Source of the DNA: Octopus vulgaris
Lineage: Eukaryota
Reading direction: 5' to 3'
Assembly (NCBI GenBank): GCA_951406725.2
Contig: OX597837.1
Location: forward strand, 19,840,001-19,904,000
Length of the DNA: 64,000 nucleotides
Every line of letters starts with the position of its first letter. The stretch's first letter is position 1. This document shows, in pieces, positions 11,870 through 12,493 of the stretch. A program made the position numbers and the translations under genes. The notes beneath the pieces were generated by a model. The model ran no database searches. It was given only the letters and a program-made list of their open reading frames with translations, and was not told where the DNA came from.

Positions 11870-12493
11870 TAAGAAATTACAAGGTAAATGTTTTTTAAAT
11901 TTTCTCCTGGTTTACGGAATTAATTTTTATTTGCGGTTGAAGCTTTGGCTGTTATTTCTAGTGGGTGAATGGCCTATTATGGCCGTTCCTTGATTGTTGA
12001 TGTTGAACTTAAAAATGGTCTATGACTATTTAATTTTTTCCCACTAGGCCGCTGGTGGCAAAAGAATTCTACAAAATTTTTTTTGCCACCCTATATTGAT
12101 TAATTATGAATTTTCTGGTTAATTCCGTAATGGAATCGACGGCTTATATTTATTTGCTGCCGATAAATTTGGCGCGAGTGCGACGATTTGAAAATTTTAG
12201 GTCAGATATAACCTTGGCAAGGTCGGATTTGCCTCGTGAAAATATCTGTTCCGACTTGGGCTATTTCTTACTGAAGAATCTGAGGGCCTTTGGACGATTG
12301 GCTTGATTTAATTTAATCAGGTTAGTTTACCATTAATCAGCAGATGAAACGGTATATCGTATAAGAAATTACAAGGTAAATGTTTTTTAAATTTTCTCCT
12401 GGTTTACGGAATTAATTTTTATTTGCGGTTGAAGCTTTGGCTGTTATTTCTAGTGGGTGAATGGCCTATTATGGCCGTTCCTTGATTGTTGAT
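11870..12493 (+). mobile_element. Retrozyme-like / Penelope pseudo-LTR-like element in (TA)n: 492-nt unit plus 132-bp direct repeat
   Basis: 11870-12001 is identical to 12362-12493; (TA)n on both flanks; internal hammerhead; many internal hairpins; no credible ORF. Confidence 0.8.
12263..12369 (+). ncRNA. Type I hammerhead ribozyme (predicted cleavage after GUA, between 12361 and 12362)
   Basis: Stem I ATTTCTTA/TAAGAAAT (8 bp); core CTGAAGA 12271-12277; stem II ATCTG/CAGAT enclosing a long structured insert; GAAA 12346-12349; stem III CGG-TATA-TCG; then TA. Confidence 0.85.

Follow-up and report, generated by a model that had tools for sequence, protein, structure and literature searches.

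Metazoan non-LTR retrozymes are non-coding tandem units with one type I hammerhead ribozyme each, and in the available parts of the two closest sources (PMC7229834; preprint 10.64898/2026.07.22.740005) they have low GC, structured RNA, thousands of dispersed copies and co-occurring Penelope elements. Their units measure 150-450 bp in the former and up to 972 bp in the latter, and circular RNA expression belongs to their description. As far as the accessible text of the preprint goes, cleavage was seen in one of nine predicted frog retrozyme dimers. Both sources state retrozyme mobility in animals as open; Penelope mobilisation and circular templates had earlier been proposed from co-occurrence and repeat similarity, the circular templates in PMC4209133 and PMC7229834.

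Endonuclease-positive Penelope-like elements, in the available portions of PMC3846280, PMC8557442 and PMC11167929, have two 3′ ends with a one-sided tail (reported as 30-40 bp), a tail-out inverted copy, variable 5′ truncation, an AT-rich or (TA)n target and a hammerhead shortly upstream of the ends. For a lizard Penelope element in vitro, two internal start sites make the 'tail' with no strand preference, cleavage is not needed and no reads end at the cut; that study could not see coupling of start sites within one insertion (PMC11167929). Non-autonomous Chlamys derivatives such as MRC1 give Penelope-type insertions in which multiple copies lie head-to-tail; their 3′ end is like that of the autonomous partners, and the section of PMC8557442 at hand reports the group without canonical hammerheads. 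A palindromic helix III is a described mark of dimer-acting hammerheads (PMC4209133, in part), which include newt and axolotl repeats (PMC7229834, in part). For cephalopods, 235 hammerhead-1 loci are tabulated in a squid genome paper and left unanalysed in its available part (PMC6962438).

Here we analysed a window of 64,000 nt of the Octopus vulgaris genome (contig OX597837.1, positions 19,840,001 to 19,904,000) and followed one insert in it across the 2.8 Gb searched. The octopus family shares the tandem single-hammerhead organisation, composition, dispersal and Penelope company of the known retrozymes, the end structure, truncation, target and hammerhead position of Penelope-like elements, and the head-to-tail insertions of the Chlamys derivatives. 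From known retrozymes it is set apart by 58 nt inserted in stem II and by a stem III that is long and palindromic, and its unit has 492 nt. Whereas circular RNA expression belongs to those retrozymes, the octopus family is known here from sequence. Compared with Penelope-like elements, it is without an ORF and without a sequence-matched autonomous partner among the ends compared, its tail measures 106 nt, and the pairing of unlike ends, when counted, is near-obligate. Its main feature, absent from the first-pass annotation, is that arms come in inverted pairs, of which one member has the short end and the other the long end. A map of retrozyme ends, of paired priming sites or of inverted arms does not appear in the available parts of PMC7229834 or 10.64898/2026.07.22.740005. 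The family is undescribed in the mainly open-access literature on octopus and cephalopod retrozymes, Penelope and hammerheads (Repbase lay outside this scope), as is the counted end pairing in the mainly open-access literature on the tail, twin priming, Penelope structure and rolling circles.

Organization of the insert

The insert (11870..12493, plus strand) is a single arm of 624 nt. With U1 set at 11870, it comprises U1-492 followed by U1-132. The 132-nt direct repeat at 492-nt spacing that had been claimed is exact, the sequence from 11870 being identical to that from 12362. One cut-to-cut unit (11870..12361) has no long ORF. The first repeat copy (11870..12001) ends at a short (S) end that is internal and not used here, and the second (12362..12493) at the used S end, 12493, where reverse transcription likely started. 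As had also been claimed, the insert lies in (TA)n, between a (TA)78 tract (11716..11871), which overlaps its start through TA microhomology, and an (AT)18 tract (12492..12527). Known non-LTR retrozymes have target-site duplications of more than 4 bp when any are present; inside (TA)n a duplication would be indistinguishable from the tract. The repeat copies stay identical for 2 nt more on the left, within the TA tract. The position of the 5′ junction is ambiguous because the unit begins with TA and TA precedes it in both contexts; it lies within about 2 nt of the predicted cut, so that the earlier statement that the insert starts at the cut stands to this resolution and is not provable beyond it.

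Between these borders, a domain predicted to enclose both family end sites (U43-261, 11912..12130) is closed by a 14-bp long-range stem (11912-11925 with 12117-12130) and is a likely protein-binding and priming domain, judging from the predicted fold. Within it, a hairpin lies 13 nt before the S end (11967..11988; second copy 12459-12480) and is kept in a sister family. A scan for bacterial promoters gave nothing informative beyond this hairpin. The 106-nt tail (12002..12107) runs from the S end (U132) to the long (L) end (U238, 12107) and contains a 13-bp hairpin at about 12054-12090. A spacer without coding sequence (U239-393, 12108..12262) leads from the tail to the next hammerhead. In the spacer, TTGGCGCGA followed by TTTGAAA (12168-12193) is kept in both families, while the spacer elsewhere is 66% identical. 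We take these motifs to resemble the E2F and CHR motifs of cell-cycle promoters, and they form a candidate internal promoter.

The window copy differs by 0.23% from the nearest sampled unit, homopolymers left out. It is young, in keeping with the recent event proposed in the first-pass annotation. It carries a private variant at 12295 (C here, A in the other copies compared), in the stem II insertion and outside the core. As a single S arm that stops at the second cut site it has near counterparts among arms of 610-720 nt (L106, L109, L182, L134 and L135), which stop in nearly the same way. The window copy is otherwise ordinary; the interest lies in its family.

Hammerhead ribozyme

All elements of the complete type I hammerhead that had been annotated (12263..12369, plus strand) were recovered: the core CUGANGA, GAAA and UH, and three stems with stem I open. 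Stem I pairs ATTTCTTA (12263-12270) with TAAGAAAT (12362-12369), and the core CTGAAGA occupies 12271-12277. Stem II (ATCTG, 12278-12282; CAGAT, 12341-12345) encloses the 58-nt insertion. GAAA (12346-12349) is followed by the stem III region, a 12-nt palindrome with one G-U (12349..12360), and the GTA triplet ends at 12361, giving a predicted cut at 12361/12362. A hammerhead descriptor scored 17 here and never exceeded 10 when the window was dinucleotide-shuffled 300 times, so the match is beyond chance. The search with Rfam hammerhead models that had been suggested gave no match here, at the gathering threshold or at E-value 10, probably owing to the long stem II insertion. The unit folds with z = -4.9, and minimum-energy folding of it did not return the active hammerhead fold.

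Comparison among copies suggests that the hammerhead is under selection, because its core varies little and its stems show compensatory changes. Among about 500 motifs from the fetched loci, overlapping fetches counted too, variation was common at core position 7, at the cut base (A or C) and at paired positions. In eight diverse copies, 7 of 17 helix pairs had changed on both sides, a count reached in none of 500 shuffles, a control that ignores the relatedness of the copies; it fell to 0-2 when partners were slid. The compensatory changes occur in all three stems, the palindrome included, as in dimer-acting hammerheads, whose palindrome is likewise kept by compensatory change (PMC4209133 and PMC7229834, in the parts available). 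The palindrome centre is TATA or TGCA in the unit family; 22 motifs have the intermediate TACA, which weakens the duplex. Because the stem III self-duplex (-13.6 kcal/mol) is far more stable than the hairpin (-0.2), again as in that class, the window hammerhead is predicted to act as a dimer. Its stems are longer than those of minimal hammerheads.

Copies of the family and coding capacity

The unit had 888 candidate places, of which 40 were scored, and full-length matches were mostly 98-100% identical. A pattern for the 3′ half of the hammerhead matched 2,633 times genome-wide, in short dispersed arrays; 100 such half-motifs were spread over the first 86 Mb of C1. Arrays contain up to nine full units per arm, with a unit length of 488-494 in most, and the window copy holds one complete hammerhead. 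The family is thus dispersed, many-copied and low in GC, with structured RNA. A protein-coding circle was considered and rejected, since each of the six frames of the unit, read as a circle, meets 8-14 stops in every round.

The unit is present at high depth in DNA runs that bear the labels of three organisms. Contigs from three runs guessed to be RNA cover it, and two of those listed bridge the cut site, as contigs that cannot show circles. Two other runs, X20 (sampled as a small share) and X23, show no unit.

A sister family (L237-L266; 2,570 candidates) is about 75% identical over U14-238 and, in 30 loci that were inspected, has the same two kinds of ends. The tail is the best conserved part (87 of 106 positions identical, 60-72% elsewhere). 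The stem III of the sister family is a perfect 12-nt palindrome in two forms, and its core is mostly CCGAUGA, with C at core position 4.

If the insert were simply a shortened terminal repeat from an autonomous Penelope element, the same ends, inversion and target would be seen, and the earlier annotation had named attachment to a Penelope ORF as a sign of such a solo pseudo-LTR. Of 121 arms extending beyond U344, and hence far to the 5′ side of the hammerhead, all continue in the unit and none enters an ORF. Units abut without an ORF in the 40 top-scoring loci, in 129 position-sampled loci and in 14 array loci, and 30 sister-family loci had no attached ORF by inspection. This origin is largely refuted and, in our view, highly improbable. 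By structure the family is an ORF-less, tandem, dispersed non-LTR retrozyme with one type I hammerhead per unit, which agrees with the original reading of a candidate retrozyme.

Fixed 3′ ends and paired inverted arms

The cut site had been taken to define the ends of the element. The fixed ends of the family are instead its 3′ ends, at U132 (S) and U238 (L), both entering (TA)n with a 2-3 nt overlap. We found 245 exact S junctions into TA and 681 exact L junctions, the L pattern also catching other subfamilies, compared with none for reversed controls. The first 40 loci had been ranked with a unit that begins at the cut, a choice by score that biases their 5′ ends towards the cut; all end statistics therefore use a set taken in genome order. 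It comprises 72 of the 245 S matches and 61 of the 681 L matches; with four duplicates dropped, these gave 129 loci (five L matches within included loci and three S matches in the complex locus L065 were left out).

At 92 of the 129 loci, an S arm and an L arm stand in tail-out inversion. Eight further S/L loci have a partner arm that is tiny or jumped, 25 are single-armed and three were unclassified. One locus was S/S by BLAST (L124), although its first 15 nt or so belong to the L end, after which it jumps, and L/L pairs were absent among the 129 loci. Thus 92 of the 93 two-armed loci that were fully classified combine S with L, where independent choice of two equally used sites would predict about half like pairs. 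Far ends lay at (AT)4 or longer in 96 of 98 cases. Within the score-picked set, L044 has two L ends and an inverted copy of its flank. The two 3′ ends, the tail-out inverted partners and the (TA)n target together support the Penelope machinery that had been proposed, and the mirror-image end pairs are a likely record of the way in which RNAs of this kind are copied into the genome by a Penelope-type enzyme.

A different origin of this structure would be a single priming followed by fold-back synthesis and endonuclease resolution. Earlier work ascribed the tail to endonuclease resolution (PMC8557442, in part) and the inversion to self-priming (PMC3846280). Our data contain near-palindromic centres, where both arms end within 20 nt of one unit position, at 15 of 74 loci (6.2 expected), as fold-back would give. 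However, either arm can be the longer one by whole units (S 1367 and L 466 in L103; L 2168 and S 128 in L173), which simple fold-back cannot give, and some arms differ in shared variants (L040 and L059). In vitro, both strands are nicked and extended, from two internal sites (PMC11167929). We consider single priming with fold-back improbable.

Several insertions adjoin long perfect palindromes of unrelated sequence between TA tracts (L214, about 1860-2480; L060, about 5000-5400; L044). These are possibly two-armed insertions of other families, or rearrangements.

5′ ends near the cut site

The 5′ ends of the family are scattered. Of the 191 arms reaching U40, 47 stop within U1-40 on their first pass; the second pass gives 11 of 71, and later passes 3 of 43. 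Together, 61 of 305 passes stop in U1-40 and 15 of 244 in U453-492 (P = 1.7e-6), so the excess lies only 3′ of the cut and not 5′ of it. Three quarters of the arms pass through the first hammerhead. Near-cut stops cluster by locus (both arms 18, one arm 17, neither 57; P = 2e-7), and arm lengths within a locus correlate (rho 0.53). The first-pass annotation had assigned the 5′ end to the cut site; a pile-up 3′ of the cut does exist, but only 47 of 191 arms stop within 40 nt. The near-cut ends centre on U5-14 for S arms and U16-28 for L arms, not on U1. The pile-up is consistent with a self-cleaved 5′ end on some of the templates, which would have been trimmed and then joined by way of AT-rich filler. 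Because the ends are centred 5-25 nt into the unit, stalling at stem I, transcription starting nearby or AT-rich microhomology may also have contributed.

AT-rich filler copied from U20-30, and often repeated, was observed at inverted junctions near the cut site (arm junctions of L113, L116, L120, L161, L167, L170 and L228). It resembles the templated insertions of end-joining repair.

The 132-nt repeat had been read as evidence of rolling, yet 132 nt is the distance from the cut to the short priming site. We lean towards a cleaved linear multimer as the template of the window copy. It is unlikely, in our estimate, that this copy instead rolled once and a quarter round a 492-nt circle, its 5′ end having come to lie at the cut through chance, through stalling on the folded hammerhead or through TA microhomology that favoured joining to (TA)n. 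Such a course would agree with the TA-TA microhomology at the junction, and another single arm, L062, has its end in the stem III TATA; a circle, however, has no end at U1, and background stopping is about 0.16 per 100 nt. The stop excess fades with successive passes as if long arms used templates without ends, but the second-pass excess (11 of 71, P = 0.004) is a prediction of partly cut linear multimers, and the confinement of the excess to the 3′ side of the cut also argues against rolling here. Its remaining support comes from the homogeneous and periodic arrays described below and from the abundance of circles for mussel and coral retrozymes (PMC7229834, in part). What had been suggested about the reverse-transcription template holds in part: a partly uncut multimer whose 5′ end was self-cleaved suits this copy better than a circle does.

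Templates of the arrays

Units within a locus diverged by a median of 0.23%, compared with 0.45% to the nearest other sampled locus (P = 0.005, n = 49). At 14 of the 49 loci, all units carried a variant found in no other of 84 loci, a small sample on which the term private rests; at five of these the variant spans both arms. A new mutation can come to be in all units of an insertion only if a single unit formed the bottleneck and was then amplified, as it would be by rolling on a circle; local homogenisation in an unsampled parent is the alternative. At 10 of 24 loci with three or more units, variants were common to only some units, and monomer circles therefore cannot be the only template; templates would appear to include multimers, circular or linear. 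The partly shared variants had a period of 3 in L033 and L270 and of 2 in L197, and were non-periodic in L040, L050, L059 and L268. The near-identical arrays and the period-2 and period-3 variants are a hint, from sequence comparison, of circular templates elsewhere in the family, and circular monomers, dimers and trimers rather probably served as templates for part of it. The idea of circular templates is not new, and the genomic evidence for it may be.

Arrays could also have grown after insertion. In the discussion section available of 10.64898/2026.07.22.740005, it is proposed that single units insert and that arrays grow later by local duplication or unequal crossover, which would make the hammerhead a passenger and dispense with circles. 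Multi-unit duplications could likewise yield period-2 or period-3 patterns, and cleavage is dispensable in vitro (PMC11167929). Against later growth, three very young loci (L267, L043 and L045) have inverted arms that are both multi-unit and identical, L267 with seven identical units over two arms and 0.65% from the next locus. The arrays are short and dispersed, as in the first 86 Mb of C1, and the hammerhead keeps its compensatory changes and shapes 5′ ends. We give growth after insertion little credence.

Proposed course of insertion

The insert is probably a young single-arm copy of a non-LTR retrozyme, put into (TA)n in trans by a Penelope-like reverse transcriptase-endonuclease. Arrays would be transcribed as multimeric RNA, some junctions of which would be cut by hammerheads, probably acting as dimers through the palindromic stem III. 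A Penelope protein would bind the folded U43-261 domain and nick both strands of a TA tract. One cDNA would be primed at U132 and the other at U238, by only 2-3 nt of AU pairing, and each would run to an end or break in the RNA before the two were joined in the middle. Where one arm alone survives, its 5′ end would be joined to the target. For the window copy, synthesis would have been primed at U132, continued through a first hammerhead that was uncut (or religated) and halted at the following one, which had cleaved itself, after which TA microhomology would have joined the arm to the tract.

A tentative extension, to which we assign somewhat less than even probability, is that the Penelope enzyme acts as an asymmetric dimer that primes one RNA twice, always at different sites, and that circles of 1-3 units are rolled into arrays. 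Each priming would start from one nicked strand, the RNA would be single or a hammerhead-bridged dimer, and the periodic variants would reflect circle size. If true, the Penelope 'tail' and the inverted structure would be explained as one reaction, and animal retrozyme circles would be true transposition templates. The Penelope integration signature is countable here on an ORF-less retrozyme, and strict unlike-end pairing also narrows down how Penelope elements themselves can work. This one genome, which has very young insertions by the hundred, two families that are related and Penelope ORFs that are intact, offers a mechanistic test bed for cleavage, circle use and dual priming.

Autonomous Penelope family

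A Penelope fragment adjoining the insertion in L066 led to a young autonomous family with 8,312 candidates (L070-L096), represented by L080 3018-6833 with an open frame of 1,271 residues. It has an asparagine-rich stretch before the RT, a 57-nt tail and a hammerhead-like motif in which C replaces core A9. Two-ended loci of this family follow the rule of unlike ends as well, being tail/no-tail in 13 of 14 by script, and the 14th has a variant tail by eye. The ORF of L080 had no Pfam match and no solved relative; its relatives carry PF01541, PF26215 and PF00078. We take it to be a Penelope ORF partly from motifs that we recognise in it. A cysteine motif before the GIY-YIG in this frame suggests Neptune or Nematis, following the description in the available part of PMC8557442.

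Among five Penelope-type 3′ ends from the fetched loci, none belonged to a coding partner whose sequence matches the unit. For the autonomous family, the strongest connection was a 45-nt alignment of borderline significance, in register at the S end, which shuffles reach in 6 of 200 and 33 of 200 cases. The distance from the cut to the S end is 124 nt in that family and 132 nt here. Two other Penelope ends were rejected as partners, their high scores coming from TA tracts or AT-rich gapped alignments.

Other elements in the window and at the sampled loci

A second, unrelated type I hammerhead-like motif lies at 53385-53460 of the window, on the minus strand. About 190 nt follow it and end in (TA)n near 53172, and similar motifs occur in L208, L222, L238 and L246; it is probably another Penelope-type end. 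Further hammerhead families were observed in the flanks of L039, L060, L069, L085, L095 (9375), L125 and L249, with a pair of hammerheads 363 nt apart in L039 (at 1761 and 2124). The genome seems to hold many retrozyme-like families. The window also contains a LINE-like element (44043-47351, plus strand) with endonuclease (PF14529) and RT (PF00078) frames, and a mariner-type transposase frame (PF01359; 36556-37311, minus strand).
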